DNA of 50,002 nucleotides from Shigella phage phiL, in sequence record PP134913; one strand, 5' to 3'. Of this stretch, positions 21,666 through 42,825 are shown piece by piece. Numbering within the stretch: position 1 is the first letter of the stretch; each line of letters begins with the position of its first letter. The translations under genes and the position numbers were made by a program. Below the pieces are notes generated by a model that worked only from the letters and a program-made list of their open reading frames with translations, was not told the DNA's origin and made no database searches.

Positions 21666-21667
21666 TT

Positions 21668-22624: not shown

Positions 22625-22652
22625 AAAAAGGGGGCCAATCGGCCCCTTTCTG
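22623..22652. terminator. bidirectional terminator between 21668..22624 and J gene
   Basis: Hairpin GGGGCCAATCGGCCCC flanked by A7 and TTTC. Confidence 0.65.
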
Positions 22653-26102: not shown

Positions 26103-26113
26103 GATGTTTACCT

Positions 26114-26131
26114 TTTTGTGCTATTTATCGG
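26114..26131 (-). promoter_or_regulatory. degenerate motif copy immediately upstream of J-like gene start
   Basis: Gene-strand AATAGCACAAAAAGGTAAAC then ATCATG. Confidence 0.3.
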
Positions 26132-26150
26132 TGAACCCATTATACAGGCG

Positions 26151-26173
26151 AAAAAAAACCCGCGCAAGGCGGG
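26151..26173 (-). terminator. intrinsic terminator between I-like and J-like genes
   Basis: Hairpin CCCGCGCAAGGCGGG with 8 T on gene strand; identical hairpin at 28332..28346. Confidence 0.6.
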
Positions 26174-26179
26174 TTAATT

Positions 26180-26779
26180 TTAACTCATATCCTCGGCATA
26201 AGAACCTGCTGAGAAAGTTGCGCCACCTCCGGCTCGATATCCATACGGGACCGGGAGAGGGTATCCCGCCGCCGTCGTGTTGACAGCACCGCCGAACGCG
26301 TACGAAGGTTTATTCTTGCTTGATTGAACTTCAAAGTTTGCTCCACCCGGCTGCGGTGAAATCATTTGCATCACGCCGCCCAGCACCATAGCGCCGCCCA
26401 TCATAAACAGAGAAGATGACATTGTTCCCATTAATGCCAGAGACGCACCTCCAGTATAGAACGCAGCAACCATTATTGCTGCACCCAATACAACCTGAAA
26501 TAGACCGCCGGACTTAGAACCAGTCGGGATCGGGACAATCCTTATCTCTTTGGCGCACTTGAATTTTTCCTCTTCATGGTGTCCAACGTTAACGCCGTCA
26601 ACAAATATTGCAAACTTACTTCGAGAGCCAACCTCGCTCTGCATGTATTCTTTAAATCCATCTACCTGACTGGATAGTGCGCGAATGGCTTCCGGGTAAG
26701 ATTCAACAGCAAAGCGGTGAAAGACGCCGAAGCGCCTACCAAGCGAACCTGATAACTTGATTACTTTTACATCATTCAT
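26180..26779 (-). CDS. tail assembly protein (lambda I-like)
   Basis: Position between K-like and J-like; Gly/Ala-rich hydrophobic C-terminal half. Confidence 0.7.
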   Translation of the reverse strand: MNDVKVIKLSGSLGRRFGVFHRFAVESYPEAIRALSSQVDGFKEYMQSEVGSRSKFAIFVDGVNVGHHEEEKFKCAKEIRIVPIPTGSKSGGLFQVVLGAAIMVAAFYTGGASLALMGTMSSSLFMMGGAMVLGGVMQMISPQPGGANFEVQSSKNKPSYAFGGAVNTTAAGYPLPVPYGYRAGGGATFSAGSYAEDMS

Positions 26780-27510
26780 AGTTTAAGATCCTTATGGCGA
26801 ACAATTAAAACCGTGTGATCCTGATACCAGCCTGAATAAATATCACGACGCGATAGCTTTCCGAATGCGTGATGCAAGATCTGATTATCACCCAGGTAAA
26901 TCCCTGCATGGTTCCACACCGGAACATTTTGCCCTATTTGCATGATTACCATATCACCAAATGAAGGATTATTCTGATCTGGAATTTCAACAAATCCATC
27001 TTGCCTGTAATAGTCCTGATAGAGATTAATTCCGTACTCAGGTTTCCACCATTCAAAATTCAACCTTCGATCGCGCAATTCTACGCCGTGCTCTTTGTGC
27101 CAAGCCATAACAAGACCGTAACAGTCAAATGAGCCTAAAGACCACGGACGACCAATCAGAGGTAATTTCTCAGGCTTGACAAATCGCATATCTCCTTCCG
27201 GTACGCTAACAATAATCCATGTCACTTCCATCTCATTACACATGCACGTATCGTGAGCGCTTGGAAGAGTTGTAGCTCCGTCCCCGGTGTGACTATGAAC
27301 AATTGCGATCGTGGTTGATTCCGCATCGTCCTCAATACATGCGTACTGCACAGCATCCATCATGAAATGATTTTCAGGATCACGATGCACATTATCGACT
27401 CTGTGGTATTTTTGCACACGGCCCTTTTGGGTAACTACCCCACAGCATTCGCGTGGGTATTCTTCCTGAGCGTGAGTCATAATTTCAAGTTTAATTTTTG
27501 CACTAATCAT
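26776..27510 (-). CDS. tail assembly protein (lambda K-like, JAB/MPN plus NlpC/P60)
   Basis: HSHTG metal-binding motif and Cys/His peptidase-like region; ATGA overlap with L-like stop. Confidence 0.75.
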   Translation of the reverse strand: MISAKIKLEIMTHAQEEYPRECCGVVTQKGRVQKYHRVDNVHRDPENHFMMDAVQYACIEDDAESTTIAIVHSHTGDGATTLPSAHDTCMCNEMEVTWIIVSVPEGDMRFVKPEKLPLIGRPWSLGSFDCYGLVMAWHKEHGVELRDRRLNFEWWKPEYGINLYQDYYRQDGFVEIPDQNNPSFGDMVIMQIGQNVPVWNHAGIYLGDNQILHHAFGKLSRRDIYSGWYQDHTVLIVRHKDLKL

Positions 27511-28289
27511 TGATTTTTCCTCTGTAGTGAAGCGACAGCGCAACCGCCAAAATCCAATTCATTGTTTGCACCGAACCGCAGGCGGCAGGCAGTTACCGTT
27601 CCCGGGCAGAAGTCGAGCGCGGGATCATCTACAGGATTATTGTCTTTGTCAAAGTAACCGCTTTGCCCGTTGTATCCGCAACCTTTCCCTGTTTTATACC
27701 AGCCACGCTGCGCCCAATAGCAAACGCTTTGCGTGAGTCGTGACGGTATCATGATTCCATCCATATCATACGGCGACGTGAGATCGAATCGTGCAACACT
27801 CTTATCGACATAGCTCGGGCGTTCGATATAGTATACCAGCTTCCGATAAGCACCGTCAGCGATTGAGCCATCAGGTTTAATCAAGTCCTTTTGAGTTATC
27901 CAGATTGTCACCTTCGCCTGCATCAATCCGTTATACGCGCGAATCATAGCAGACACTCGACTATCAATGTTTGCTACCGTTAATTGTGGTTTTGTCGCCT
28001 TACCTGAACTGTCGAACGAGATCCCGGATATACCGAACGGTCGCGCGCCGTACTGTTCACCACGGAAGGTAATTTCTTTCGGCGGTAGCGTTCCTGTTTG
28101 CTGGGCCTGCATGATTTCTTCTGGAGTGTACTGGATATTCTCCCCGTGGAATCGGTACACCTGAGCACCGAACTTACTACCATCAACTTCAATAAGGGTG
28201 ATTATCTCGCCAGGATACAGTGATTGTAGGCAGTTGTGAAACAGGCTTCTCCCGCTTTCTTCATCATAAAGTTTTTTGTTTTCGCTCAT
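27507..28289 (-). CDS. minor tail protein (lambda L-like)
   Basis: Position between M-like and K-like; start set at ATG with AGAGGA RBS. Confidence 0.7.
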   Translation of the reverse strand: MSENKKLYDEESGRSLFHNCLQSLYPGEIITLIEVDGSKFGAQVYRFHGENIQYTPEEIMQAQQTGTLPPKEITFRGEQYGARPFGISGISFDSSGKATKPQLTVANIDSRVSAMIRAYNGLMQAKVTIWITQKDLIKPDGSIADGAYRKLVYYIERPSYVDKSVARFDLTSPYDMDGIMIPSRLTQSVCYWAQRGWYKTGKGCGYNGQSGYFDKDNNPVDDPALDFCPGTVTACRLRFGANNELDFGGCAVASLQRKNQ

Positions 28290-28324
28290 TGATTTTTCCT
28301 CTTGTTTACCTGCAACCATTCTAC

Positions 28325-28346
28325 AGCTACAAAAAAACCCGCGCAA
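28325..28346 (-). terminator. intrinsic terminator between M-like and L-like genes
   Basis: Same 15-nt hairpin CCCGCGCAAGGCGGG with 7 T. Confidence 0.6.
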
Positions 28347-28368
28347 GGCGGGATTTTGTTATGTGGCG

Positions 28369-28722
28369 CTAGTTCATAGATGTAAATTGCTCAATAAACG
28401 TTACGTTAATCTCCATCACGTCGCGTGATACTGGCTTCGCTCCCAGGCTGTTAGGCTTAACAACCCACATCCCGATCTTCCCGTCCGGCGGCATCCATGC
28501 GAACGGCTTAATGCGGTGAGAATCGCAGAAGTCGTAAACAGCCATGAAATCTTCCCCGGCATAGACAACTGAATACTCGCGTCGAGTGGTGTTAAATCCA
28601 GACGACGCAAGCTGCATGTAGCCATTACCAAACTGGATGGATCTGTCGTTATTGGTAGTGGTAAGGGAGCCACCGCCCCCTTGAACCTGCGTACACCAGC
28701 CGAAAGTGTCAAGTGTCGCCAT
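28369..28722 (-). CDS. minor tail protein (lambda M-like)
   Basis: 117 aa ORF directly after tape measure gene. Confidence 0.7.
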   Translation of the reverse strand: MATLDTFGWCTQVQGGGGSLTTTNNDRSIQFGNGYMQLASSGFNTTRREYSVVYAGEDFMAVYDFCDSHRIKPFAWMPPDGKIGMWVVKPNSLGAKPVSRDVMEINVTFIEQFTSMN

Positions 28723-28724
28723 TA

Positions 28725-31598
28725 TTAACCTCCTGTTTTTTCCTGAATGTAATTATAAACCTCGCCGCCCTGAGAACAAGACTCACGAATCATTTTTTTG
28801 AACATCATTTCTACACCCTGAGAAATGCCTCTCGGATCTGAACCGTTGTCAACTTTAACCTCCATACCCCTAACGTCAACGACCGTCCCACCTGCTGATT
28901 GGTTTACTGCCTTCGGCGCTGCTTTGGATGCGTTAAATCCAGATGTTGCCACACTACCAGATGCGGCAGCGAGCGAGGTAACAGCAACGCCAGATGATAA
29001 AGACCTAAAACCGGAGGCGGCAGGCGTAGGGGCTGCCTGTGATGCCGCAGAAGCACCAGACGACGCCACTCCAGCAAAGCTCCACGTCTTACCGCCCATC
29101 ATGCCTGAGATCGTATTGAAGATTACCATCTGAGCAATCATCTTTATAATCATGCTAATGATGTTTTTCGCAAAGTCCTCAAAGTTTGCCTTACCTGTAG
29201 TCAGGAATTGGGTCATCATATCACTCATTCCGTTAAGTGAACTTGACGCTATATCATATACGTTACCATACATATCCATTGCGGAATCGCCGTAATCTGC
29301 AAATGCGCTTTCAGCACCTGCCAACCAGTCAGCACGCTTGGCATCTTCCGCTGCATAGTAATCATTTTGTGCCTTGATCATGTTCTGGAGTTTTTCATCT
29401 CCTTCGCTGCCACCTGCATTAATATAATCAGTGGTGATCTTAGCCAACTCAGCTTGTCGTTCCATTTCTCGGGTGCTCATCCCGCGAGACGCGTTTAGCT
29501 GCTCTGTAGCTGCCGTCAAATCATTGACAAATTTCAGTGACTTATCGGTAAGATAGTTCAACTGCTGCTGCTTAACAATCTGATCGCCAATCTCAGCCTT
29601 CTGTTTCGCAAGCTCTAAAACTTTCTCCTGATTTGCAAGTAGTGATTTTTCTTCCGCAGACAACTGACGCTTAGAACTAGCCTCGCGAAGAACAGCGATC
29701 GTAGCCTCAGTAGTAAACAGCGCCTTTCTCTGCGCGGAAAGTTTTTGCCCGATCTCCTTGTGCTCCTGCAATACCTTAAGTTGAGCCTTGAGTGAAATTA
29801 GCTCCTTGTCGAATTGCTCTGTAGGTGAGCGTAAAATTTTCGACTGCTTATTTCGCTCACGGTTTCGCTTTTCGATCTCTTCAGCTTCTTCCTTGATAGC
29901 GTCCTTAGTTTCCTGGATGTACTGCTTCTCAATGGTACGACGCTGCTTCATTGCTTCAACGTATCCCATCTCACCTTTTTCAACACGGGCGTTAATGGCA
30001 TCAAGCTCTGAAGCCAACTGTTCGTAGTTGTCGCGAGAACTTTTTACGATGTTCTCCTGCTCCTTCAGCACATCAGCACCAAAATCACTCATACCAGGCA
30101 GGGATTGCGTGGCCTTGATTGCAGATGCTATAAAGTTTGAGATGTACTCATCACCCTTCGCTAGAATCATTTTTACCTGAATTACCGTCCCCTGAACTAC
30201 GTCAATAATCAGGTTTAATGCCCCGAGAGTGTGATCCCCAACCCACCCCCACGCATCAGAGGCCCACTGCTTAATATCGTTCCACATTTTTTCAAGAGGT
30301 GTGGCATTGTCTGCGATCGACTTCATTCGCTTTTCCATAACTTCGGCGAATAATTTCGTTGCTTCAGACACTGCTTCCGTTTCACCCTTAGTACGGCTTA
30401 GCGTATCGATATATGTCAGTTGTCCTTTTTCCAAAAAGTTGTATTGCTCGTTAAGTTTAGCAAGGCCCTTTACAGGATCGCTTGCGATTTTATCGAACTC
30501 AGCAATGATTTTACTTGCTGATTTTCCTGTTGCTGTAGACCACTCGGCGGTAGCTTTTGTGATGTTCTGAATCTGCTCTCGCGTATATTTCCCCGTGCTG
30601 GCAAGTTCAGTAACAATCTCACGAATGCTTGAAATTGTTGAGTTGCTCGTCTGAGCTACCTTTTTAGCAACAGAATCAAGGTCTTCAGCCGTGACTCCTG
30701 CATAACCTCCAGTCTCAACAAGAGCATTCTGCATATCAGTTATTGACTTGTAAGAGTCATAACCAGCTTTCGCGAGAAGACCTAACGAACCAACGAGAAC
30801 ACCAATACCTGCTGTGACCGGATTAATATAACTGAGCAATACCTTAAACGTGTTGCCGATACCGCCGAAAGAATCCTTAATCTGCCCTCCCTGCTGGATA
30901 GCAACCATCCATACAGGCATACCAGAAGCAAGAGACGTTACGACGTCTGTGATCTGCGCAGGAAGCATTCGCATTGCCTGCCTATATTGCCCTGCGCTAA
31001 TGCCTGCGGCATTCATTGCCCGACCCTGATCTTTCAGTTTTGCGATTAGTGGCGCTGCTTCTTTCGATAAGCCAAGCTCAGCCGCTTTCAGTTCCATCAA
31101 TTCAGCGTGAGTCTTGCCGATCGCGTTAACTTGACCATTCAGGGCATCCATGAATGCCTTGCTTCGTGCTGCCGCCTGTTCTTTTGCTTTCGCTTCCTGC
31201 AATGCCGCCTGGCCCTCTTCCGTCAGCATCGCCCGACTGCGAGCAAGTTTTGCGTTTTGCATATCCAGCATTTCACCTAAACGGAAAAACGTGTCATCTG
31301 GAATAACGCCTTGCTGCCATAGTTTATCAAGCTGCTGGGAAGCAACTTTTAACCTCTCCATTTTTGCAACTGTAGGATCGATTGCTTTCTCTACCGCTTC
31401 GTACTCTTTTCTCTGTCGCTTGAGTTGTTCTGCGTGTTCTTTAGCCTTCTGCTTCGCTACTTCTGCCTCATTGATTAAAGATCCCATAGAGTCAGCGGCT
31501 TGGTCGTTGGCCCTTGAAAACTCTTTCAGTGACTTGACGGCGCGCTGTACTGTTGACACGTCAACGTCAAGAGACAAACCTGCTACTTTATCAACCAT
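28725..31598 (-). CDS. tail tape measure protein
   Basis: 957 aa, coiled-coil rich, Gly/Ala/Ser-rich C-terminal segment; follows G/GT chaperone. Confidence 0.8.
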
Positions 31599-31615
31599 AT
31601 AGCCCCCTATATACG

Positions 31616-31635
31616 AAAAAACCGCCAAACGGCGG
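31616..31635 (-). terminator. intrinsic terminator between chaperone T frame end and tape measure start
   Basis: Hairpin CCGCCGTTTGGCGG followed by TTTTTT. Confidence 0.55.
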
Positions 31636-31636
31636 C

Positions 31637-32271
31637 TTAGTTATTCTGCTTAGCAATCATTTCAAGCGCTTTCGCTTCCATGATTCTAACGTCCTGCAAT
31701 GCCAGTTCTTCATCATCTATTTTATAGATTTTGAACAGCATAGGCAAAACATTATAGTCAAGACCATAAGCTCCAGCGCCTGAACTTCTCCACTGAGTGA
31801 GCATTGACGTAAAAACATTCCACGCCTTCACCATTTCAGCGTCGCCAATTATCGTTTCCGGTTCCTCGTCTTCATAGTCAGAAAGACTGAGGCCAACCGA
31901 TCGTAATTGCTCTTCTGTCGGCGGTTTCTGATATAACAGATAAACCGCCCGTTTTAGTTTTTTGCGCGGTGTCCGGCGAGCGCCTTGATGTAAGTTGCCG
32001 TCAGATTGTACGCTGCGGAAGGGTAATACTGTACCAGTTTACGCGCATTCTCTTCGTTAAATTCTTCTTCCAGATTCCACCCGGACGCGATCTTAGTGAT
32101 GAAATCGCTATCATTCATTTCTCCCTGTTTAGTGTACATATCCTGTACTTCTTTACTGGAAAGGTGGCGCACGGTAAAAATAATCGTCGCATCTTCACCG
32201 TTTGGCATGGTGAAAGTAACCGGAAGTTTGAAGTCTGGAAGCTGGCCCAGCACAAAATTGAATTTAGCCAT
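31637..32271 (-). CDS. tail assembly chaperone G-T fusion made by -1 frameshift
   Basis: -1 frame open from slippery site to stop at 31637 with no intervening stop. Confidence 0.5.
31954..32271 (-). CDS. tail assembly chaperone (lambda G-like)
   Basis: Between major tail and tape measure; ends with slippery A_AAA_AAC. Confidence 0.6.
   Translation of the reverse strand: MAKFNFVLGQLPDFKLPVTFTMPNGEDATIIFTVRHLSSKEVQDMYTKQGEMNDSDFITKIASGWNLEEEFNEENARKLVQYYPSAAYNLTATYIKALAGHRAKN
31957..31963 (-). other. -1 programmed frameshift slippery heptamer A_AAA_AAC
   Basis: Heptamer in G frame immediately before the G stop codon. Confidence 0.5.
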
Positions 32272-32290
32272 GATGTTCTCCTGATTGGTT

Positions 32291-32310
32291 GATAGCACTT
32301 TTTGTTAAAA
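32291..32310 (-). promoter_or_regulatory. motif copy immediately upstream of tail chaperone RBS
   Basis: Plus-strand GATAGCACTTTTTGTTAAAA adjacent to CAGGAGA RBS. Confidence 0.45.
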
Positions 32311-32339
32311 GTGAATTGAATAAAGTTGATACGATGATT

Positions 32340-32372
32340 CTACAGAAATGAAGAAGGGGGCGCAAGCCCCCT
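32340..32372 (-). terminator. possible terminator after major tail gene
   Basis: Hairpin GGGGGCTTGCGCCCCC followed by TTCTTCATTT (weak U-tract). Confidence 0.4.
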
Positions 32373-32383
32373 GTGGATGTGAT

Positions 32384-33052
32384 TTAGGCACCTGGAGATG
32401 CCAGAGTGGATGAGACGAAAGTAAAATCACCTTTCAGGGATACGGCGAGTTGTACTGTTTCCATTTCGTTCACTTGCGTAGATGGGATGTCGTTAAAAGA
32501 CAAGATGCCAGCCCACATGCGCATCTCGTTCGCTTTTGGAACATACATACGAACCGCAGTTACCTGACCAGAAGAATCCAGCTTACGCAGAATTGGGTAG
32601 ATCGGGTTATCAAATTCGTGCGCGAAGGTGTAGGTTAGTGAGATCGCGGATTTAAATGTCGGGATCTGCTGCTCCTTATCGTCGGACAAACACTGATAAG
32701 TGTAGTACTGCTGCTCGCCGCCGTCCTGACCAATCTCCTGCACGCATGGGATCTCAGTCCACCCGGTAATTTTTGCAAAGCTCATTGTCCCGCCAGCCGG
32801 AAAAACTAGAGTGTCAGAGGTGTCAATTCCAGCAAGTGTAATCTTTGTTTCCTGGGCGTCAGTGACAATTAGCACACGGCTAACCATTTTAGCCCACGTT
32901 GACTGAGTTACAATAACGTAATTACCTTTAGCTAAATCACCCTTAGATGCAACTGTAGCAACAGGCTGTTTTGCATTAGTAATAGCAGTTGCCTCGATCT
33001 CTTCTCCGCGAGAAGTTTCTACGAAAATTTGCGCGCCATTTGGTAAGTGCAT
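32384..33052 (-). CDS. major tail protein
   Basis: Upstream of G/GT and tape measure; AAAGGAGA RBS; terminator downstream. Confidence 0.65.
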   Translation of the reverse strand: MHLPNGAQIFVETSRGEEIEATAITNAKQPVATVASKGDLAKGNYVIVTQSTWAKMVSRVLIVTDAQETKITLAGIDTSDTLVFPAGGTMSFAKITGWTEIPCVQEIGQDGGEQQYYTYQCLSDDKEQQIPTFKSAISLTYTFAHEFDNPIYPILRKLDSSGQVTAVRMYVPKANEMRMWAGILSFNDIPSTQVNEMETVQLAVSLKGDFTFVSSTLASPGA

Positions 33053-33054
33053 AA

Positions 33055-33453
33055 TTAAGTCTCCTTTGTATCTACTCGTACTGTAAAGCGAACCGGAATC
33101 ATCCACCCGCTTTCATGTTTAACAATTTGATGCACGATTGCACCTTCGAAAATATAACCAACGTTAAGCATTTTACCATCTTTGAAAAAATCGGCAATCT
33201 CTTTTGCTTTCAATCTTGCCTCGTCAACGCCGGAGCCTGGAGGGAACACTACGCCGATCTGAACGATTGCGATGTAAGATTTACACTTTCGGTCAATTGA
33301 TAGATAAAGCGTATCACCTTCAATGTAGTTGAACCTTAGCCACATGCCGCCACCCTTCGGAGGTGTAAAGTTCCTGTTTTCCATGTAGTGAGGAAAGTCT
33401 CTATACTTCGACAGAAATGCGGCGCGCGCCGCCGCTGATAACTCATAGTGCAT
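33055..33453 (-). CDS. tail completion / tail terminator-like protein
   Basis: Position directly upstream of major tail gene. Confidence 0.45.
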   Translation of the reverse strand: MHYELSAAARAAFLSKYRDFPHYMENRNFTPPKGGGMWLRFNYIEGDTLYLSIDRKCKSYIAIVQIGVVFPPGSGVDEARLKAKEIADFFKDGKMLNVGYIFEGAIVHQIVKHESGWMIPVRFTVRVDTKET

Positions 33454-33886
33454 TTTGTTGTCTCCTTGCTTGCTTTATTGCGTCTGCCATATACGATCGC
33501 AATCTCAATGCAACCAGTCCGACGACGCCGTTTGGTGCTTGTTGTGAATGACCGTACTCAAGAGAGTTTGCATAAATCAACATGTTTGAGAAGTGAACTG
33601 ATGTTATCGCACCTCCACGGCTGAACATGCCATAAGTTTTTGCTTGCTCCTCACTACGGACGACGCTGCCAGTTTTATCGTATCGATTTAATGCGTAGTT
33701 AGGGATTTCGTTAAAAGTTATCTGCCAGTTACCCTTAAATCGCCCTGTGTCGACAGGAGAGCGGCTAACTAGCGCATCGTGAACATCCCTTACGAATATC
33801 TCAATGGCATGTTCTAACGTGCTTTCAGCGGCCTTAATCCACGCATCAATCTCGCCTTGAAATCTACGAATCTGATAATTAGCCAC
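33443..33886 (-). CDS. neck protein, HK97 gp10-like
   Basis: VDTGRFKGNW motif typical of gp10 family; position in head-tail joining block. Confidence 0.55.
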   Translation of the reverse strand: MANYQIRRFQGEIDAWIKAAESTLEHAIEIFVRDVHDALVSRSPVDTGRFKGNWQITFNEIPNYALNRYDKTGSVVRSEEQAKTYGMFSRGGAITSVHFSNMLIYANSLEYGHSQQAPNGVVGLVALRLRSYMADAIKQARRQQNAL

Positions 33887-34259
33887 CGACTGATACCCTC
33901 CGCAATACTGGACGATAGGCGACTGGTTTCAGTGACGCCTGAACCGGGCGAGCATCAACGACAACATGACGAATGCCATCAATCTCTATATAGTCACCTT
34001 CGTTTATTTCATGATCATTATTGAAGATTCCCAAAATGTCTGAGGCGCGGATAGTTTCCCCGTCAATTTCACGCGCGTTCGGTCTTCGCGTCGTGCCGGA
34101 TATTGGAATAACCTGTTCCATAGGTGGGATCTCGAATCCGTTTTCATCATATCCGTATTCACCTTGCTTTATCAGGTTCATAGGTCTTGACGGATCGGTG
34201 AAGAAAGCTACGCCTTTACGAGCCATCCTTTCAATCTGTGAGTAGTTCATTAGCGGCAT
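33879..34259 (-). CDS. head-tail joining (head closure) protein
   Basis: Position and size. Confidence 0.45.
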   Translation of the reverse strand: MPLMNYSQIERMARKGVAFFTDPSRPMNLIKQGEYGYDENGFEIPPMEQVIPISGTTRRPNAREIDGETIRASDILGIFNNDHEINEGDYIEIDGIRHVVVDARPVQASLKPVAYRPVLRRVSVGG

Positions 34260-34660: not shown

Positions 34661-34673
34661 AATTTACCCCCAT

Positions 34674-34699
34674 AAAAAAAGGCGCTACGTGAGCGCCTT
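34674..34699 (-). terminator. intrinsic terminator upstream of connector gene
   Basis: Hairpin AAGGCGCTCACGTAGCGCCTT followed by 7 T. Confidence 0.6.
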
Positions 34700-34704
34700 G
34701 ATGA

Positions 34705-34992
34705 TTAATATTCGCCGCCGTCCTCAAGCTCTTTAACGCTTTTGCTATCCCACGGATCTGGCTTCGTGATCTTTGCCATTTCATCGCGGATTTTGCGGTT
34801 GGTTGCACTGTCGTCTTTAACTTCGATTTCTTCGCGAGCAATTAAGCAACGCAGGCCAGGTAAATCAAGAACGGAAGCCGGAAGCGTGACCTCTTCATCT
34901 GGAAGAACTTTAGCAAATGAACCATCTTCAAGACGGAACATCTGAAGAGCTACACCAACGTTTACGATAACAACAGTTTTTTCTTTAGCCAT
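34705..34992 (-). CDS. hypothetical head-associated protein (95 aa)
   Basis: ORF directly downstream of capsid gene, bracketed by terminators. Confidence 0.5.
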   Translation of the reverse strand: MAKEKTVVIVNVGVALQMFRLEDGSFAKVLPDEEVTLPASVLDLPGLRCLIAREEIEVKDDSATNRKIRDEMAKITKPDPWDSKSVKELEDGGEY

Positions 34993-35006
34993 TTTGATTT
35001 CTCCAA

Positions 35007-35034
35007 TAAAAAAGGGACTAACTAAGTTAGCCCC
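35007..35034 (-). terminator. intrinsic terminator directly after capsid gene
   Basis: Hairpin GGGGCTAACTTAGTTAGTCCC (one mismatch) followed by TTTTTTATT. Confidence 0.5.
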
Positions 35035-35041
35035 TATAATA

Positions 35042-36001
35042 TTACACGCCAGTGATTAAGACAATAGTCATCGGGCGATAAATTGTAAGACCAGTACACT
35101 TAGAGGTGCAAGGCACTTTAAAGTGCAAGTCTTTCGGCTGCGCTGGCAGCATGTTAAATGCTTCCGGGATCTCGATGGACATATTCATCGGATTTTTTTC
35201 GTACACCAGCACGCCTTTAGTACCAGCACCGTCGATATCTTCAAGCTCTGCGATAGAGTCGATTTCGATACCCGCATTCTGAGACTTGAAATAGTCCAGG
35301 TAAGACATGGTAGTTTCAGGCATACGGATCGCCAGAACCTTACGCATGGACGGCGGGATCAGGATGTTGGTTGCACGATGCTGGCCGCGTGTAATCGTCT
35401 CGATGGTTTCGATCGCCTGAGTCAATTCCGCTTCAGCAGTTTCCGGCTTCGGAGTTGCTGCATTCATCCACTTACCCGAGGTGATTTTGGTGATGTTCGG
35501 ATGATTGAACACAGACACGATCTTGTGCGGAGCAGAACCTTTGAACACCAGGCGGTTAACCAGTTGGTCGTGTGCTAACTGACATGCGCTTGCCTTGCGG
35601 GTTGACAGTGGTCGACCAGTTGCCTGACCTGCTTTGATTTCATCAATTGAGATCAGATACGCGTTACCCAAACGAAATACCTTGCCGAACTCAGAAGTAC
35701 CCAGGGCATCAACAAGCGGCAGGTCATCTGTATAGTCAGCGATAATCTGCGCAGTACCAACCTTATCAAAGGTCATATACTCAAACGTCTTGTCGGTCGG
35801 AGAAAGATCGGTAGTGACCGGGAATACTCGAAGTGCGGAGCCTACCGGGTAGTCTTCTTCATAGGACTGACTCTTGATGCGGTGTAGTTCCTGAGCGGTC
35901 CAGATACCCATCGTTGCGGCTGCATCCTGTTTTACTCCAGCCTGGATCAGATACATTTCAACATTGCTCTTATCTGCTTCATCAAATTTTTTAGTAGTCA
36001 T
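35042..36001 (-). CDS. major capsid protein
   Basis: 319 aa; AAGGAGAAG RBS; flanked by terminators; follows scaffold and head proteins. Confidence 0.65.
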   Translation of the reverse strand: MTTKKFDEADKSNVEMYLIQAGVKQDAAATMGIWTAQELHRIKSQSYEEDYPVGSALRVFPVTTDLSPTDKTFEYMTFDKVGTAQIIADYTDDLPLVDALGTSEFGKVFRLGNAYLISIDEIKAGQATGRPLSTRKASACQLAHDQLVNRLVFKGSAPHKIVSVFNHPNITKITSGKWMNAATPKPETAEAELTQAIETIETITRGQHRATNILIPPSMRKVLAIRMPETTMSYLDYFKSQNAGIEIDSIAELEDIDGAGTKGVLVYEKNPMNMSIEIPEAFNMLPAQPKDLHFKVPCTSKCTGLTIYRPMTIVLITGV

Positions 36002-36021
36002 GATTACTTCTCCTTAGTTAA

Positions 36022-36049
36022 TAAAAAAGCCGTGATTATGTTCACGGCT
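36022..36049 (-). terminator. intrinsic terminator immediately upstream of capsid RBS
   Basis: Hairpin GCCGTGAACATAATCACGGC followed by TTTTTTATT. Confidence 0.6.
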
Positions 36050-36054
36050 TCAAT

Positions 36055-36074
36055 AATAGCACTTTTTGTTAAAG
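36055..36074 (-). promoter_or_regulatory. motif copy upstream of capsid gene, followed by terminator hairpin
   Basis: Plus-strand AATAGCACTTTTTGTTAAAG. Confidence 0.45.
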
Positions 36075-36092
36075 CGTCAAAGTATTTTTATG

Positions 36093-36857
36093 TTATGAGT
36101 CTTCTTCGGCTGGCGTAGCATCAAAGACATAAGTGATCGATTCTTTAGTTTTGCTGGCATCGTTAGCCACCCAATTTACGTTTACGCTACCTGCTGAATC
36201 TCCACCAATTGGAGTAAGAACGCCAGATTTTGGATCTATTGTCGCAACATTTTCAGCATCAACAGACCACACGCCAGTTTTATTGGTGGCGTTGTCAGGT
36301 TTTACGGCAACGTTAAATTGCACAGGTGCATTGTTTGGCTGCGGACTCTCCTTGTTAGTGGTAATCGTCGCAGACTTAACAAGAACCACAGGAGCGGGTG
36401 GAGGTGGGGTAATGAAAGCATTTTGCTTCACCTGTACCTCAATAATGTACCCGTCATCGTGCTTAACAAATCCACCAGCAAATGTCCAACCTACGGAACC
36501 AGAGCTACCAGTAACAACACCACCAGATCCAAATTGTAACTTTGAGAATAAGGCCGGAGATTCATCAAGAGAAGTGAGGGTCCACATGCGACCATGAGAA
36601 ACGACGTTGCAAACTTCACCGTCTAGGATTTTACCGCTCAGGTGTTCATATTGGGAACGGAAAGCTATACCGTAAGGAGTTCCACCATCAGCAAGCGCCT
36701 TTACAACCTTCACTCCATCAACGATCCCGACAACCTGAACCGCAGCGCCGAACTCAATATCACCCTGAGCAACACAAGATCCATCAATATTGTAGGCTGA
36801 AGTATCAGAAAGATTCCCTGGGCACGCTGGGCGCAACATTAAATTTTCGTAAGCCAT
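36093..36857 (-). CDS. head protein with C-terminal Ig-like domain (paralog of 36918..37394)
   Basis: N-terminal 150 aa aligns with neighbour (YNIDGxCV, GAAVxVV, YGxAxRS, SxGRxW); PPPPAP linker then beta-rich domain. Confidence 0.55.
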   Translation of the reverse strand: MAYENLMLRPACPGNLSDTSAYNIDGSCVAQGDIEFGAAVQVVGIVDGVKVVKALADGGTPYGIAFRSQYEHLSGKILDGEVCNVVSHGRMWTLTSLDESPALFSKLQFGSGGVVTGSSGSVGWTFAGGFVKHDDGYIIEVQVKQNAFITPPPPAPVVLVKSATITTNKESPQPNNAPVQFNVAVKPDNATNKTGVWSVDAENVATIDPKSGVLTPIGGDSAGSVNVNWVANDASKTKESITYVFDATPAEEDS

Positions 36858-36871
36858 AATAATTTCTCCAT

Positions 36872-36902
36872 AAAAAAAGGACCATCCAAAAAGGATAGTC
36901 CT
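36872..36902 (-). terminator. intrinsic terminator between the two paralogous head genes
   Basis: Hairpin AGGACTATCC...GGATGGTCC (one mismatch) followed by 7 T. Confidence 0.5.
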
Positions 36903-36917
36903 CATATTAAACGCTAA

Positions 36918-37394
36918 TTACAGTTGATGCAACTGAACTTCTACAAGCTGAATATCTTTGTATTTAGTCCAGCCGCCAGCGTAAGTCCAGGTAGTTTCGA
37001 TCGTGCCATCAGATTTCTCTTGACCGTCAACGTCAAGTTTAACGGCGGTTCCGAAAGTTGGTGCTTCTTCTGATTTTGAAAGCATCCATACTCGACCGGA
37101 GGTCATGACGTTGATTGCGCCGCCTTCTTCATAAACCATTTGGTTTTTAGAGTTCACAGTCTGCCAGTGAGATCGAATAGCTACACCATAAGGCACTTTA
37201 GATGCCTCCATAGCTTTAACCAGTTTATGACCGTCAACAGCCTGAGCCTGGACAACATGGACGGCAGCGCCAACAAAAACATCACCTTCGTTAACGACAC
37301 AAGCGCCGTCAATGTTGTACTTGGAAGTGTCTGCAACCATACCCGGAAGGGCGATCGCCATATCGCGCTGATAAGATGCGTTAATTTGTGCCAT
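36918..37394 (-). CDS. head protein (158 aa), paralog of 36093..36857
   Basis: Shared motif set with downstream gene. Confidence 0.55.
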   Translation of the reverse strand: MAQINASYQRDMAIALPGMVADTSKYNIDGACVVNEGDVFVGAAVHVVQAQAVDGHKLVKAMEASKVPYGVAIRSHWQTVNSKNQMVYEEGGAINVMTSGRVWMLSKSEEAPTFGTAVKLDVDGQEKSDGTIETTWTYAGGWTKYKDIQLVEVQLHQL

Positions 37395-37405
37395 GATATT
37401 TCCCC

Positions 37406-38518
37406 TTACATTACTTTGCTTAAACGTGAATTTGGCGTAACAGGCGCGGCGTCGTTTTTCTCTTCCGGCTTACCGCCTTCGATAGAGTCGCCTTTTACTG
37501 CTTTACGCTGAATAGCCATGATATCAGAATCTTTAGCAACATCAAACATAGCGTCGATATATGCATCAGATTTTTCGCTCACATCTTTGTTCAGCATTGC
37601 TTTGACTACTGCGACCTTAACGTCTTTGATTTCAAGGCCATCATGCTTAACGCCTGCGGTTTCTGCCACTGCGGTAACTTCTGCACGTGCTGCGGCGTCA
37701 GCTTTCTGCTTCTCTACTTCTGCTTTTACCAGTTCAGGGATAGAATCAACCTTAACCTTAAGAGCGTCGCGTTCAGCTTCGAAGCCATCAGCTTTCCCCT
37801 GAATGGTTGCAATCTGTGCGGTTAATTTTTCGATATGGTTAGCAACGTCTTCGGTTACTTCCACATCAACGGAGTCGATCTTGATTTTTTTCATTTGCTT
37901 GTCCTCGTTAGTTGATTGAACGTTATTATCATACGGAAATTCCTGTTCAGCATCAAGGTTTAATTTAGCAATTCCAGCACGACCCTTGAAAACTAGTGCG
38001 ATATGGTTGACCTTGATATTAGTCTGTACCGCGTCAAATTTCACCCATCCTTCCGGCGGCGCTTCATCCTGCTTCATATCCTCTTCGAAGATATATTCTC
38101 CAGTCTCGTTTGAACCCCAGCCTGGCTTATCAATATCTACCGACGTGTACCCTACAGATAATTCCCCGGCCTCCTTCGCTTTAGCTTTGCTGATCGCGTA
38201 GTCGCTGTAAATACTCAAAGGAACTTCAACGCCAACCCCTGAAGCAATACCAGCGCCAGCGCACGATCCCACAACAACATCCTTAGCATTTTGGGGAGTT
38301 ACCGTTACGTGACCTACTGTAATCGGCTTGCCTGCAAAACTTTGCAATGAATCTTGCTTGAAAACTTCTGACGCCGGACGGAACTCAACGCGATCGCCGT
38401 GTGGCGTTTTGTAAACCTGAGCGCCGATTCGCGCCACGATTGGGCGGTCAACTAAAAAACCGTTATCATCAAAATGCGCCTTGATTTTTACTGAATCAAA
38501 TCTTTGCTTTGCCTTCAT
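37406..38518 (-). CDS. scaffolding / prohead protease-like protein
   Basis: Position between MuF-like and capsid genes; Lys/Glu-rich coiled-coil C-terminal half. Confidence 0.55.
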   Translation of the reverse strand: MKAKQRFDSVKIKAHFDDNGFLVDRPIVARIGAQVYKTPHGDRVEFRPASEVFKQDSLQSFAGKPITVGHVTVTPQNAKDVVVGSCAGAGIASGVGVEVPLSIYSDYAISKAKAKEAGELSVGYTSVDIDKPGWGSNETGEYIFEEDMKQDEAPPEGWVKFDAVQTNIKVNHIALVFKGRAGIAKLNLDAEQEFPYDNNVQSTNEDKQMKKIKIDSVDVEVTEDVANHIEKLTAQIATIQGKADGFEAERDALKVKVDSIPELVKAEVEKQKADAAARAEVTAVAETAGVKHDGLEIKDVKVAVVKAMLNKDVSEKSDAYIDAMFDVAKDSDIMAIQRKAVKGDSIEGGKPEEKNDAAPVTPNSRLSKVM

Positions 38519-38520
38519 TT

Positions 38521-39282
38521 TTAATCTCCTGTGGAAAAGTCTGGAACAGCCCAACAACGGCAGTTGTATTCTTCACCCGGGAATACGTGATCGGAATCTA
38601 CCGCTATGCGCTTACCTTCCCATCTTACATGTTTTTCACGTTCTCGTAAATCCATCACCCCGCGCCAGAAATAGTAAGAGACACCAGCATCTTTTATGCG
38701 TTGGCGCATTAGTCTACTGTTCCATGTTCCGACAATTCCAGACGCTCTATTTTTGGCCCAATTACGGTAAATACCAAATCTCTCCTTAGCAAGCTCAACA
38801 ACAAAATCCTTGCTTTTACCCTGACCGGATGCTGCACGAAGTTTATCAGTGAAATCAGTAACCATGTTGGCGGCAAATTTCCTAATAGAAGTAGTCACCT
38901 GAGATCGCCACAGATTATATTGTCCTGAGTACCAGCTTTCGGCAGCGGTAGGACCAATCAGGGAAAGTAGCATTACGGCCTGATTCTTCTTCCCTCCAGA
39001 GTTGCGAGCGATACGCAACCACTGCTTAGAGTTGAATTTATAGATCGTGAGCGCAACGGATGATAGAGAACCGATAATCGGCGCGATGAGCGATTCAACG
39101 TAATCAAGCAATGACCTTTCTGCCTGGTCTATCTCTTCGTCGGTAGCGTCAAATTTCATCGGCTTTAATTCGTCACGCATTTTCTCAGTTAGCTTGGCTG
39201 CAACATCCTGTAGGGAGCGCGACATTGCGCGCTCGCTAATTTCAGGATAGCGCCACTGAGTAGCAACGCCATTAATTTTCAT
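38521..39282 (-). CDS. head morphogenesis protein (Mu F / SPP1 gp7-like)
   Basis: Directly after portal; C-terminal NCRCW motif. Confidence 0.65.
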   Translation of the reverse strand: MKINGVATQWRYPEISERAMSRSLQDVAAKLTEKMRDELKPMKFDATDEEIDQAERSLLDYVESLIAPIIGSLSSVALTIYKFNSKQWLRIARNSGGKKNQAVMLLSLIGPTAAESWYSGQYNLWRSQVTTSIRKFAANMVTDFTDKLRAASGQGKSKDFVVELAKERFGIYRNWAKNRASGIVGTWNSRLMRQRIKDAGVSYYFWRGVMDLREREKHVRWEGKRIAVDSDHVFPGEEYNCRCWAVPDFSTGD

Positions 39283-40555
39283 CTTCTAACTTCTCCCCCA
39301 ATCCCGGCTCCGGTTCAGTTGTTTCTTCCGGTTCGCGAATATTGATGTTATTACCGTCCTTGAGTTTAAACTCAGGAGCGATAGAGCGCAACGTATCGCG
39401 AGCCTCTTCCAGATCGATGATTTGCTCAGTGATGGCTTTCGTCACCGAATCAACGTTATTCTTCGTGATCTCTGATTCCTCTTTCTTGCTCGGAACAGAT
39501 AAAGGCTCAAACTCGATCGACCACTCTTGCTCGTCAACAATGAACGGCAGCAAGAACTCAAGAAGCGGCCTGTAATCTTCCTCACGCTTACGATCGACCA
39601 ACTTATAGAAAGTCTCAAGCGCTGTGTTTTGGCTCGCTGATACGCCGCCTACGTTCTTATTTTTGATGATAATCTCATGAATCCCGGAAAGGGAAACAAT
39701 ACGATCCATCTTGCTTGATAAGAACTCAGGTACTCCGCTGATATCAGAGTTTAGAACATCGTATTCTTCCGTCTCAGCATCGATACCGATCGCGCGGCCT
39801 ACGCCGGAGTTATCATCAACCTGAGCAAGTCGCAGGCGCGCAGCATACTGAGCGTCGTCATCATCGCACATTTCGGCAAGGCCTTTAACCTTCCATACCG
39901 CCTGTTGCTTACGCCGCAGAATCTGAGTTGCAAGTGATTCGCAATAGTCGTAGTCGCAGATTGCATCAATAAGTGACTTATTCAAAACTGAAGCACCCCA
40001 CCCATGATTCTGCCTTCGAATCTGAGGGGTAACTCTCTCACCATCAGCAATGAAAATTCTCGTGTGGTGGATTAAGTAAGGTTGAACATTGTCACCTGGC
40101 GACACCTTATAGATCTCAGGATCACCATAGCGAGGCGATCTCGCATTGGTTACTCTTTTTTCTATTGTAATTGAGAACCTATCGTAAACACGCACACCTT
40201 CAAGTTTAGCCCCAGGCTTAGCTGGACTGGTTAGCATTCTGTTGTCATTAATGATTGCTACAATAGCTGCCCCACCGTATAGGCGCGCCCAGCAAAGAAC
40301 ATCAACCAAGCTAGGATCAATTTTGTAACTATCCCACAGTGATTTGAACTCTTTTTCATCCTTAACGCCTGAAATTTTAAACCCAGCCGTCACCATTTCT
40401 TCCGGGATCACATCTACAATTCTCTTCGCTGTTGCGTTATCGTTATAGAAAGATCCTACGTGATATGATGCGTCTGACATAAAAAATGGCTTTGGTGAAC
40501 CGTCCGCGCCGCCGTTAAAGATATCGTTATATCCATCATGCTTAACAATTTTCAT
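39272..40555 (-). CDS. portal protein
   Basis: 427 aa directly downstream of TerL; GGAGGAAAC RBS. Confidence 0.7.
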   Translation of the reverse strand: MKIVKHDGYNDIFNGGADGSPKPFFMSDASYHVGSFYNDNATAKRIVDVIPEEMVTAGFKISGVKDEKEFKSLWDSYKIDPSLVDVLCWARLYGGAAIVAIINDNRMLTSPAKPGAKLEGVRVYDRFSITIEKRVTNARSPRYGDPEIYKVSPGDNVQPYLIHHTRIFIADGERVTPQIRRQNHGWGASVLNKSLIDAICDYDYCESLATQILRRKQQAVWKVKGLAEMCDDDDAQYAARLRLAQVDDNSGVGRAIGIDAETEEYDVLNSDISGVPEFLSSKMDRIVSLSGIHEIIIKNKNVGGVSASQNTALETFYKLVDRKREEDYRPLLEFLLPFIVDEQEWSIEFEPLSVPSKKEESEITKNNVDSVTKAITEQIIDLEEARDTLRSIAPEFKLKDGNNINIREPEETTEPEPGLGEKLEDEN

Positions 40556-40565
40556 GTTTCCTCCA

Positions 40566-40593
40566 ATAAAAAAGGCCGTCAATTGACAGCCTT
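40566..40593 (-). terminator. intrinsic terminator between TerL and portal
   Basis: Hairpin AAGGCTGTCAATTGACGGCCTT followed by TTTTTTATT. Confidence 0.55.
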
Positions 40594-40606
40594 GATTATA
40601 TCTTAT

Positions 40607-42178
40607 TTATTGCCGCTTAACCATCCCGGCAAGTCGCTTCATTCGCTCTATAGGATCGTCAATAGTCAGCAATTCAATGTTCGCCGCATCCATGAAGTTA
40701 TCGACAATGTCATCATGCGGATGTGTGTCATCATATGTGAAAGCGCTATGCTCTGCGATGATTTCCGCAAGCATAGGGTGCTCTTCTGGAAGAACTACAC
40801 GCCCGGCCTTAATAACTGGCTGAGCATCCATCGCTCGGGTAACTTTATCTTTGTTACGTTGCAATGGTGTAATTGAGATCGGGGTCTTTTTCCTTAAGTT
40901 CTGAATCAAGCCCGTTCCGCTCGCTTTATCTTCCACGTAGATTTTGCGAAGCACGCCCATTGATTTATTGTGCCTCCATGCCTGATTCACAAAGGCGGTA
41001 AATTGTTTCTCCATATCAGGCGCTTCCCACTTGCCGCGAATGCCGTCGATAAAGTAAACCTTATCGTTTTTCTTACCCCATAAACAAAAGACTGTGTAGT
41101 CGTTTAGCTCGCCAGTCTTCTGAGCGGTATCTGCTGTGATAAAACGGTAATCATATTTACCAGGATCTGGCTCGTCAGCGTCAAGGCTGCTACCGTAATA
41201 AGTCCACCATTCCGAGTTAAACACGGAGCCACCAAGCGCGATCGGCTTCTGCTGATACTGAGAGTCAAAGGTGTACTGGTCCGCTTCGCGCAAAGCTAAC
41301 AGGTCGTGTACACTTTCCTTGCTGGGCCAGAATGAGTAATGCTTAACTCCATCCAACTCTACATATTCAGACGACAAAACGTCGCGCTCAAAGTAAGGCT
41401 GCAACCAGTCAGGAAGCGTCTTTCCGTATTCTTCAGTAACCAGTGCCGGAATTGAGATCTGATCAAACTCAATACCCATGCCGCCATTCATCATGAACCA
41501 TGTTGAATCCTGAGCATGTAGTCGTTGCTGAATTGCAATAATAGGCGTCTCGTTATGCATACGACGGGATCGTATGGTGTTCTTCAATAGCATATGGGTA
41601 CGCTCACGCTTAACCTTTGAGAACATATCATCAGGCTTATCGATATCGTCTAGCATTACCATACCTGAGAATCCCGGCATCATGTAGCCACCACGCGAAC
41701 CAGTAATGCGACCGCCAGCCGCAGCGGATATCAACTCAAACCAAACCTTTCCATCCTCGTTAAGAACCTGCATCTCTTCGTCTTTCGATGTACCGAATTT
41801 GCAAGGCCATAGCTCTTGAAATTCGTTGCTGCTGATAATCTCACGCACACGCTTACTGTTACGCTTAACCAAGCTGTCGGCAAACGACACGTTAAGGTTT
41901 CGCACCTTCTTACACTTGAGCATTGCGTATACCGGAAGGTGGATTGAGAACACTTCAGTTTTACCGGAGCCTGGCGTGACGTTAAAGATAGTGTTACCGC
42001 GTCGGCCTGCAATAATTTCCTCCACTTCGTGACATAGGTAAAGGTGATGCCAGTTAGGCTGGAACTGCTGAGCCTGCATAAGCTGAAACCAGATCCGAAT
42101 CATTTTTTCGAAATTGGCCTCGCTCATTTTTTTGATCGCCAACTTCTGAGTTGCGTCGAGTTCTTCCCATTGAATCAT
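40607..42178 (-). CDS. terminase large subunit
   Basis: 523 aa with P-loop-like TPGSGKT and nuclease-like C-terminus; between TerS and portal. Confidence 0.85.
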   Translation of the reverse strand: MIQWEELDATQKLAIKKMSEANFEKMIRIWFQLMQAQQFQPNWHHLYLCHEVEEIIAGRRGNTIFNVTPGSGKTEVFSIHLPVYAMLKCKKVRNLNVSFADSLVKRNSKRVREIISSNEFQELWPCKFGTSKDEEMQVLNEDGKVWFELISAAAGGRITGSRGGYMMPGFSGMVMLDDIDKPDDMFSKVKRERTHMLLKNTIRSRRMHNETPIIAIQQRLHAQDSTWFMMNGGMGIEFDQISIPALVTEEYGKTLPDWLQPYFERDVLSSEYVELDGVKHYSFWPSKESVHDLLALREADQYTFDSQYQQKPIALGGSVFNSEWWTYYGSSLDADEPDPGKYDYRFITADTAQKTGELNDYTVFCLWGKKNDKVYFIDGIRGKWEAPDMEKQFTAFVNQAWRHNKSMGVLRKIYVEDKASGTGLIQNLRKKTPISITPLQRNKDKVTRAMDAQPVIKAGRVVLPEEHPMLAEIIAEHSAFTYDDTHPHDDIVDNFMDAANIELLTIDDPIERMKRLAGMVKRQ

Positions 42179-42216
42179 ATCAATTCTCCTGTATGGGCGC
42201 TTGCGCGCCCGTAACG

Positions 42217-42741
42217 TTAAAGCATGTCAAGAATACTGTTTACAGCCTCTTTCATTGCTTCCTCAGTAGTGGCGACAGCGGTCGACGCTGAAGCTGCCGA
42301 GTTTTCGATGTTGATTGAAGCTGGCTTGTCGATTCCGAGATCCTTGCCGATAAATGAGGCGTTAATAACGCCGTTTGCGGCAAGCTGAAATTTTTGCTCG
42401 TTGATTACGGATTCCACGAACTCCATAACCTCACTGTATTCTTCCTCACGCTTCCACTTAATGATTGCGGCCTCGCTTGCACCGATAAACAGTCGATATC
42501 CGGTCCAGGTGAAGACGCGCGGCTTATGAACAAGCGATTCATAAACGCCACCCTGAAAGCTGGCTGATTCTGAAGCCTTTATCGCGTTGTCCTCAGCCCA
42601 TTCGAAATACTTCACCGACAGATCGAATAGTTGTTCTGGCGTCATCGCACGGTTCTTCGCAAGAACAGTGCCGAATTTTTTCTTGTATAGCTCTTTGAAA
42701 TTACCTCCCTGGACTACGGGAGCATTCTTAGGTTCACTCAT
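42217..42741 (-). CDS. terminase small subunit
   Basis: Directly upstream of TerL; start set at ATG with AGAGGA RBS. Confidence 0.55.
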   Translation of the reverse strand: MSEPKNAPVVQGGNFKELYKKKFGTVLAKNRAMTPEQLFDLSVKYFEWAEDNAIKASESASFQGGVYESLVHKPRVFTWTGYRLFIGASEAAIIKWKREEEYSEVMEFVESVINEQKFQLAANGVINASFIGKDLGIDKPASINIENSAASASTAVATTEEAMKEAVNSILDML

Positions 42742-42757
42742 AAATCCATCCTCTTTG

Positions 42758-42778
42758 TTTAACATTTAGTGCTATTTT
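42758..42778 (-). promoter_or_regulatory. motif copy immediately upstream of TerS RBS
   Basis: Gene-strand AAATAGCACTAAATGTTAAAC then AAAGAGGA RBS. Confidence 0.45.
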
Positions 42779-42793
42779 ACCATATTGCAGGCA

Positions 42794-42816
42794 TAAAAAA
42801 ACCCGCCGAAGCGGGT
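42794..42816 (-). terminator. intrinsic terminator upstream of TerS
   Basis: Hairpin ACCCGCTTCGGCGGGT followed by 7 T. Confidence 0.6.
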
Positions 42817-42825
42817 TAGTATTTA

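Follow-up and report, generated by a model that had tools for sequence, protein, structure and literature searches.

The late structural genes of T1-like phages are punctuated by annotated or predicted intrinsic terminators. Herein, these terminators are described for Shigella phage phiL (sequence record PP134913), together with the predicted promoters that are fused to most of them. The analysed stretch of DNA, called the window below, has a length of 50,002 nucleotides and is, judged by sequence similarity, that of a T1-like phage (Tunavirus). Over its full length, region 26000-43000 shares 96.5% identity with Shigella phage Shfl1; identity with coliphage T1 and many other Tunavirus genomes is ~91%.

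Known systems

The T1 RefSeq record NC_005833 marks a 'rho-independent transcriptional termination site' at nine of the ten junctions considered here, namely before TerS, portal, gp48, gp46, gp45, gp40, tape measure, gp36, and gp33—all but the precapsid junction. The orthologous sequences are near-identical. The late 'transcriptons' of T1, meaning terminator-flanked transcriptional modules with RpoD promoters, are described in PMC11447400, which cites Roberts, Martin and Kropinski 2004. For phage TLS, Supplementary Table S1 of that article gives 21 intergenic terminators. Other T1-like genome papers report 18-21 terminators, or eight.

Promoter-coupled terminators have been described in Acinetobacter baumannii, Escherichia coli (540 pairs), and Bacillus subtilis (Fletcher, Forrest, Grainger et al., August 2026; bioRxiv 10.64898/2026.08.19.745784). 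Experiments in this preprint show that stem-loop DNA can act as a -35 element and the T tract as the spacer, with the -10 element located after the T tract, and that the coupled promoter raises termination efficiency. The class criterion includes a mapped termination site at most 35 bp upstream of a mapped start. The class stems from bacterial chromosomes, and phages are unmentioned in the preprint.

For phiL, we consider it probable that the hairpins are intrinsic terminators dividing the late region into about ten short units, that eight of them are fused to sigma-70 promoters, and that gene dosage is set by promoter strength together with leaky termination.

Terminator hairpins of the late module

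All structural genes from TerS to the J-like tail protein gene are located on the minus strand. Three concordant methods, namely a consensus scan, a strict terminator scan, and ViennaRNA folds with shuffles, reveal ten compact G+C-rich hairpins followed by T tracts. All ten lie in intergenic gaps of the late module and on its gene strand; the module ends with an eleventh. An earlier note on this DNA had claimed hairpin-plus-U-tract structures on the gene strand of the structural region, which is borne out by the scans and folds for these ten sites. The strict scan of 22600-43100 gives 17 hits on the gene strand and 8 on the opposite strand, whereas 40 dinucleotide shuffles average 3.85 hits, with a maximum of 10. 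Eleven of the 17 hits fall into intergenic sequence, which comprises 959 of the 20,501 bases (4.7%). A permissive first scan returned 64 and 65 hits per strand, mainly long poor hairpins, and was replaced by the strict version. The free-energy calculation suggested in the note yields -8.5 to -17.6 kcal/mol for the ten hairpins (z -2.2 to -6.7), and 0-6 of 200 shuffles fold equally well. Five to eight T directly follow the stem on its 3' side at nine sites. Behind the major tail gene, the tract is weak in the window (TTCTTCATT) and strong in relatives.

The relatives comprise eight annotated phages (T1, Shfl1, IME347, mar001J1, TLS, Rtp, damhaus, and a Klebsiella phage) and 80 capsid-centred loci from IMG/VR. 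Orthologues were identified by tblastn, the 150 nt upstream of each were scanned, and counts refer to distinct upstream sequences. The elements are, from TerS to the end of the module, as follows (SD, Shine-Dalgarno sequence).

42793..42817 (-): terminator before TerS; hairpin AACCCGCTTCGGCGGGTT (42817-42800) and T tract; -11.8 kcal/mol, z -3.7; 65/66 relatives; annotated in T1
40566..40593 (-): terminator before portal; AAGGCTGTCAATTGACGGCCTT (hairpin 40593-40572) and T tract, then SD GGAGG; -13.8 kcal/mol, z -5.2; 49/63 relatives; annotated in T1
36870..36903 (-): terminator before the second head paralog (head2); GAGGACTATCCTTTTTGGATGGTCCTT (hairpin 36903-36877) and T tract, then SD GGAG and ATG 36857; -17.6 kcal/mol, z -6.7; 12/12 head2-bearing relatives; annotated in T1
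36019..36051 (-): hairpin (36051-36026) and T tract before the SD of the capsid gene (MCP), directly after the -10 of the capsid promoter; -15.0 kcal/mol, z -6.5; 62/76 relatives; not annotated in T1
35007..35035 (-): terminator after capsid and before the 95-aa gene; AGGGGCTAACTTAGTTAGTCCCT (hairpin 35035-35013) and T tract, then SD GGAG; -13.8 kcal/mol; 49/50 relatives; annotated in T1
34673..34699 (-): terminator before the connector-like virion structural gene, no promoter; hairpin 34699-34679; -12.0 kcal/mol; 66/72 relatives; annotated in T1
32337..32372 (-): terminator-then-promoter module after the major tail gene and before G; hairpin GGGGGCTTGCGCCCCC (32372-32355); -14.6 kcal/mol; 62/63 relatives; annotated in T1
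31613..31638 (-): terminator before tape measure, overlapping the stop codon of the frameshifted chaperone, no promoter; hairpin 31638-31619; -12.3 kcal/mol; 48/52 relatives; annotated in T1
28318..28352 (-): terminator-then-promoter module before the L-like gene; hairpin CCCGCCTTGCGCGGG (28352-28338), T7; -8.5 kcal/mol; 55/60 relatives; annotated in T1
26139..26175 (-): terminator-then-promoter module before the J-like gene; hairpin AACCCGCCTTGCGCGGGTT (26175-26157), T8; -10.9 kcal/mol; 57/59 relatives; annotated in T1
22623..22646 (-): bidirectional terminator closing the late module after J; hairpin 22646-22631, plus-strand partner 22630-22647; -13.5 kcal/mol

For six hairpins, the next start codon follows 16-24 nt after the hairpin end, and the T tract continues into the SD, 7-12 nt on. 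The hairpins of TerS, G, L, and J end 48-84 nt before the start codon, with a predicted promoter in between. Thus, the earlier statement that the hairpins end 5-15 nt before a ribosome-binding site holds for the six sites and fails for these four. The distance from stop codon to hairpin is 0-16 nt at nine of the ten sites. Hairpins had also been placed before both head paralogs; one is present before head2, and none exists in the 11-nt gap upstream of the first paralog. The true start of head2 is ATG 36857, preceded by SD GGAG as in T1 and Shfl1, and the start of the longest open reading frame (ORF) at 36905 is wrong. Therefore, the hairpin 36903-36877 is intergenic and does not lie inside the gene.

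The 15-mer CCCGCGCAAGGCGGG occurs in exactly two copies, 26159-26173 and 28338-28352, with 0.03 expected. The noted identity of two hairpins is hence correct, with the second copy placed off by six at 28332-28346. Two identical copies are what chance inverted repeats, or a dispersed repeat or mobile element devoid of regulatory function, might leave behind. Such an origin is nevertheless extremely improbable: the excess over shuffles is about fourfold and concentrated in the intergenic gene strand, and the stems differ by site and by phage with position and pairing retained. Rfam (gathering threshold) and ARAGORN give no match over the window, so that the hairpins are not known structured RNAs or tRNAs; the lack of an Rfam family match likewise speaks against a repeat.

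One further hairpin, GGGCGCGCAAGCGCCC at 42195-42210 (-), is located in the gap between TerS and TerL and abuts the SD of TerL. It folds with ~-14 kcal/mol and is not a terminator because it carries no T tract. It is kept in Tunavirinae only, with altered loops. At the other end of the module, the bidirectional terminator 22630-22647 separates the end of the J-like gene (-) from the convergent plus-strand ORF 21659-22624.

Conservation across relatives

In a set of 89 sequences that spans several Drexlerviridae subfamilies, a strict terminator is borne by the ten junctions in 78-100% of the distinct sequences, and by the remaining eleven junctions in 0-13% each. Each of the ten exhibits 10-33 distinct hairpins, the stems of which vary widely among lineages with the pairing kept. 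The T tract is conserved together with the hairpin at all ten.

For the postcapsid hairpin, RNAalifold detects compensatory changes in six of nine pairs. RNAalifold on MAFFT alignments was discarded for the portal set, which was misaligned and retained 3 pairs only, in favor of flank-anchored alignments with a fixed structure. In these, 82% of cells pair for portal versus 75% in shuffles, and 76% for J versus 64%; 0/500 shuffles reach the observed value at either junction. Slid registers pair worse than the stated structure for both J and portal. Pairing at J amounts to only 76% because one fixed register cannot fit every lineage.

By sequence, the structures bear every hallmark of intrinsic (Rho-independent) terminators. 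Together with the family-wide conservation of position and the T1 annotation, this upholds their initial designation as terminators.

Predicted promoters fused to the terminators

Conserved predicted sigma-70-type promoters, overlooked in the earlier note, are coupled to eight of the ten hairpins. Two geometries are found. The terminator precedes the promoter at TerS, G, L, and J, and the promoter precedes the terminator at portal, head2, capsid, and the 95-aa gene. The predicted promoters are as follows.

42774..42782 (-): TerS promoter, extended -10 TGgTAAAAT, 20-23 nt past the hairpin; -10 in 58/58 and TGn in 55/65 distinct relatives
40595..40600 (-): portal promoter, -10 TATAAT, 1 nt before the portal hairpin; -10-like hexamer 0-1 nt away in 33/35
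36904..36932 (-): head2 promoter TTGCAT-17-TAATAT, -10 adjoining the hairpin; TAATAT in 7/8, -10-like hexamer in 8/8, and TTG at 17 bp in 7/8, counted in a low-diversity sample of 8 distinct relatives
36053..36080 (-): capsid promoter TTGACG-16-TGcTATTAT; 10/12 matches plus TG in the consensus promoter scan
35036..35064 (-): 95-aa-gene promoter TTGTCT-17-TATTAT, -10 adjoining the hairpin; listed by the consensus promoter scan
32337-32365 (-): G-module promoter; -35 TTGCGC 32365-32360 (loop and 3' arm), 17-bp spacer, -10 TAGAAT 32342-32337; spacer 17 in 33/45 and 16 in 11/45
28318-28346 (-): L-module promoter; -35 TTGCGC 28346-28341, 17-bp spacer, -10 TAGAAT 28323-28318; spacer 17 in 22/29
26139-26167 (-): J-module promoter; -35 TTGCGC 26167-26162, 17-bp spacer, -10 TATAAT 26144-26139; -10 in 45/45, spacer 17 in 31/33

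In the G, L, and J modules, the hairpin loop and 3' arm read TTGCGC, followed by the remainder of the stem and the T tract, and TATAAT or TAGAAT lies exactly 17 bp on. Hence, the hairpin DNA would supply the -35, the T tract would fill the 17-bp spacer, and the TATAAT-like -10 would come next. The identity of the L and J hairpins (CCCGCC-TTGCGC-GGG) is explained by the -35 that they share. TerS differs in that the T tract occupies the -35 position, and the hairpin does not supply a -35. The -10 past the hairpin was chosen independently of any -35. A good one is present in 45/45 distinct sequences for J, 41/42 for L, 46/58 for G, and 58/58 for TerS; for J, L, and G it is of the TATAAT/TAGAAT/TACAAT type and begins 10-14 nt after the hairpin. 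The hairpin-borne TTG is located exactly 17 bp upstream of the -10 in 31/33 (J), 22/29 (L), and 33/45 (G) cases. At the two terminator-only junctions, TTG is nearly absent from the hairpin, and the hexamers downstream are all poor. The alignment of 28 distinct pre-J sequences is almost gap-free, and invariance is confined to T.G in the -35 and TA.AAT in the -10, with varying stems. Extended -10 promoters were considered for G, L, and J and rejected, since their TG adjoins the hexamer; the extended -10 is valid only for TerS and capsid.

In the second geometry, the -10 hexamers of the window (TATAAT, TAATAT, TGcTATTAT, and TATTAT) end 0-2 nt before the 5' arm of the hairpin. A -10-like hexamer ends 0-3 nt before the hairpin in 33/35 (portal), 8/8 (head2), 29/41 (capsid), and 30/30 (95-aa gene) distinct sequences. 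At the terminator-only control junctions, poor hexamers are found just upstream of the hairpin in 10/48 and 17/37. In 22 distinct portal sequences, TA...T of the -10 is invariant and AA nearly so, and the adjacent bases are variable. For capsid, 39/62 distinct sequences have their best promoter directly against the hairpin, TGn is present in 58/62, and TTG at 16 bp in 17; Rtp-like phages carry at this junction a terminator and then a promoter 41-47 nt later. For the 95-aa gene, 31 TTG occurrences were counted, 28 of them at 17 bp. The junctions before the connector-like virion gene and tape measure show no consistent -10 or -35 in relatives.

As computed, RNA starting 6-9 nt after the -10 would lack the outer 5' arm of the hairpin and have 3-19 nt unpaired before the U tract. 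Transcripts of the own promoter would thus begin inside the stem, without its lower part, and escape termination, while transcripts born upstream would be stopped. In intrinsic termination, a truncated stem should abolish termination, which here applies to own-promoter transcripts only. We tentatively put forward the idea that such a 'self-blind' terminator serves as a compact insulator and that two complementary kinds of fusion exist.

A different view is that the hairpins act mainly on the fate of the RNA, either as 3' exonuclease barriers, as 5'-terminal stabilisers, or by presenting U-rich sequence and SD to ribosomes. It would fit the six sites where T tract and SD merge within 7-12 nt, the four sites where the hairpin would form the extreme 5' end of a promoter-initiated RNA, and the related TerS/TerL hairpin 42195-42210 with its missing U tract. 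However, the T tract retained with the hairpin at all ten junctions is a signature of termination and unneeded for stability, and a -10 only 0-2 nt upstream would leave the 5' arm incompletely transcribed. A predominant role in RNA fate is therefore quite improbable, with the addition that RNA fate and termination are not mutually exclusive.

Proposed termination and re-initiation

In the favored account, polymerases coming from upstream would stop at each hairpin, and new ones would start at the fused promoter. The conserved coupled promoters favor such termination followed by re-initiation over one operon that is transcribed by readthrough or antitermination. We infer the 3' and 5' ends of the RNAs, the termination efficiencies, and the self-escape mechanism from the sequence.

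At the two promoter-less sites, and probably at others too, termination is likely incomplete. The short distances between stop codon and hairpin make leaky termination plausible: in E. coli, lambda tR2 is almost fully repressed at short stop-to-terminator distances (constructs from 8-9 bp), and its termination becomes maximal only past ~30 bp from the stop because a trailing ribosome represses it (PMC4824070). The same distances can be taken to indicate one long late transcript, on which internal terminators are partial or overridden by an antiterminator and which would result in a 5'-to-3' gradient of structural dosage. This is also in line with the absence of promoters at the connector-like virion gene and tape measure terminators and with predicted promoters that, capsid excepted, remain below consensus strength. 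Against a single transcript, eight terminators carry conserved promoter elements at fixed spacing, and the T1 literature already prefers separate transcriptons. In addition, a Pfam scan of the 57 non-late ORFs gives no Q/N-type antiterminator among the 25 families listed of 31 matched, which small novel proteins would escape. PHROGs assign to the non-late ORFs only one 'transcriptional regulator', with a Cro-like helix-turn-helix (HTH). We regard a single late transcript as unlikely. Of the dosage control proposed in the earlier note, graded readthrough remains plausible as a secondary component, given the two promoter-less sites and the short stop distances, and is abandoned as the mode of a single operon dependent on it; antitermination control is not sustained, with eight terminators coupled to predicted promoters and the antiterminator family missing among the Pfam matches listed.

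Several points weigh against termination with re-initiation. The 2024 re-annotation of TLS (PMC11447400) gives three intergenic sigma-70 promoters only, obtained with conservative tools, and does not affirm transcriptons. Transcriptomes of T1-like phages were not found in the literature, and the RNA ends are thus predicted. Only three of six positions of the -35 TTGCGC agree with the consensus, and G, L, and J carry the TG preceding the -10 outside the canonical TGn position. No -35 can be recognised for the portal promoter. In the 95-aa-gene and head2 promoters, TTG is located within coding sequence, and its conservation may partly reflect protein constraint. The T tract of the post-major-tail hairpin is weak in the window. 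For J and portal, formal covariation yields no more than moderate counts, and the base-anchored pairing table, which selects sequences that already fold, is circular and hence illustrative only.

Repeats and other elements of the window

The motif ATAGCAC-N5-G-N-TAAA occurs at 22 sites in the window, with 0.27 expected, and corresponds to a 21-nt direct repeat reported for TLS, T1, and Rtp (PMC11447400). Examples are

679-696 (-), 3564-3581 (+), and 44589-44606 (-): ATAGCAC sites outside the late module
42758-42775 (-), 26107-26124 (-), 36056-36073 (+), and 32292-32309 (+): ATAGCAC sites of the late module

In early regions, the distance from the TTGnTA of the repeat to a downstream TATAGT-like -10 is constant at 22 bp, and a conserved leader (ATCGACAACGA) and the SD come next. 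A function of the repeat as the -35 of early promoters was rejected, since 22 bp exceeds the standard -35 distance. In the late module, the repeat is positioned downstream of the predicted -10 (TerS and J) or inverted inside or near promoters (capsid and G); the spacer of the capsid promoter contains such an inverted copy. The repeat could be a regulator or UP-like site, and the copies overlapping several modules could add a regulatory layer. The inverted repeats 32292-32340 (+) and 36056-36095 (+) exhibit a plus-strand -10-like TACGAT at 22 bp and a TATGTT 17 bp from TTGTTA, and predicted antisense promoters may face the major tail gene and head2. The ORF 15228-15752 (+), between the helicase and primase genes, encodes the Cro-like HTH protein (PHROG 'transcriptional regulator', E 3e-76; weak Pfam P22_Cro). 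As the only recognisable transcription factor, it is a candidate binder of the ATAGCAC repeat.

An apparent gap of 119 nt after the G-like chaperone gene is the frameshift extension of the G/GT pair, which is annotated as a joined coding sequence in TLS. The slippery sequence A AAA AAC at 31963-31957 (-) lies just upstream of the stop of the G-like chaperone and is followed by the hairpin GGCGGTTT...AAACCGCC at 31949-31920. Together (31920-31963, -), they constitute a classical -1 frameshift signal of the G/GT tail assembly chaperone, with the extension being the 65-aa ORF 31637-31834.

Comparison with known systems

The terminators themselves are already known, being annotated in T1 and treated in the literature on T1 and TLS, so that the discovery value is small. 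Only the promoter-before-hairpin geometry, as predicted here, may hold some novelty. The present comparison would give the first known family-wide support for T1-type late genes being re-initiated at terminator-fused promoters, which was left open by the 2024 TLS re-annotation. In addition, the eight compact natural modules of 35-60 bp, with their natural variants, are suited to studies of interference between initiation and termination and to use as synthetic-biology insulators.

The late operon of lambda, which is controlled by Q antitermination, resembles phiL in its long co-oriented structural block containing intrinsic terminators. It differs in having one late promoter and Q acting at qut, whereas phiL exhibits multiple conserved predicted internal promoters and no detected Q/N homologue among the Pfam families listed. 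Eight conserved internal promoter-like elements are found where a lambda-like operon has a single late promoter.

TLS contains positionally equivalent and near-identical hairpins, T28 cccgcccttgcgcggg and T49 cccgcggttgcgcggg, and the same ATAGCAC...TAAAA repeat. T1 belongs to the same genus and has the same genes, with terminators at nine of the ten orthologous junctions. Its record differs by having no promoters annotated in the region and by leaving the precapsid hairpin unmarked. The two fusion geometries (-35 inside the hairpin and -10 abutting the 5' arm) were not found stated in the accessible T1 and TLS literature text. The layout with the -10 before the hairpin was likewise not found described in the accessible parts of the promoter-coupled-terminator preprint or of the T1 and TLS literature.

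Compared with the promoter-coupled terminators of bacteria, the G, L, and J modules show all sequence features of the class, with RNA ends that are predicted only. The distance from termination to start is ~20-26 bp (predicted) in the phage modules versus a modal ~10 bp in the bacterial class. Shared are the -10 past the T tract, the stem-loop -35, the T tract as the spacer, and the tandem arrangement of functionally related genes, which extends this bacterial architecture to a lytic phage.

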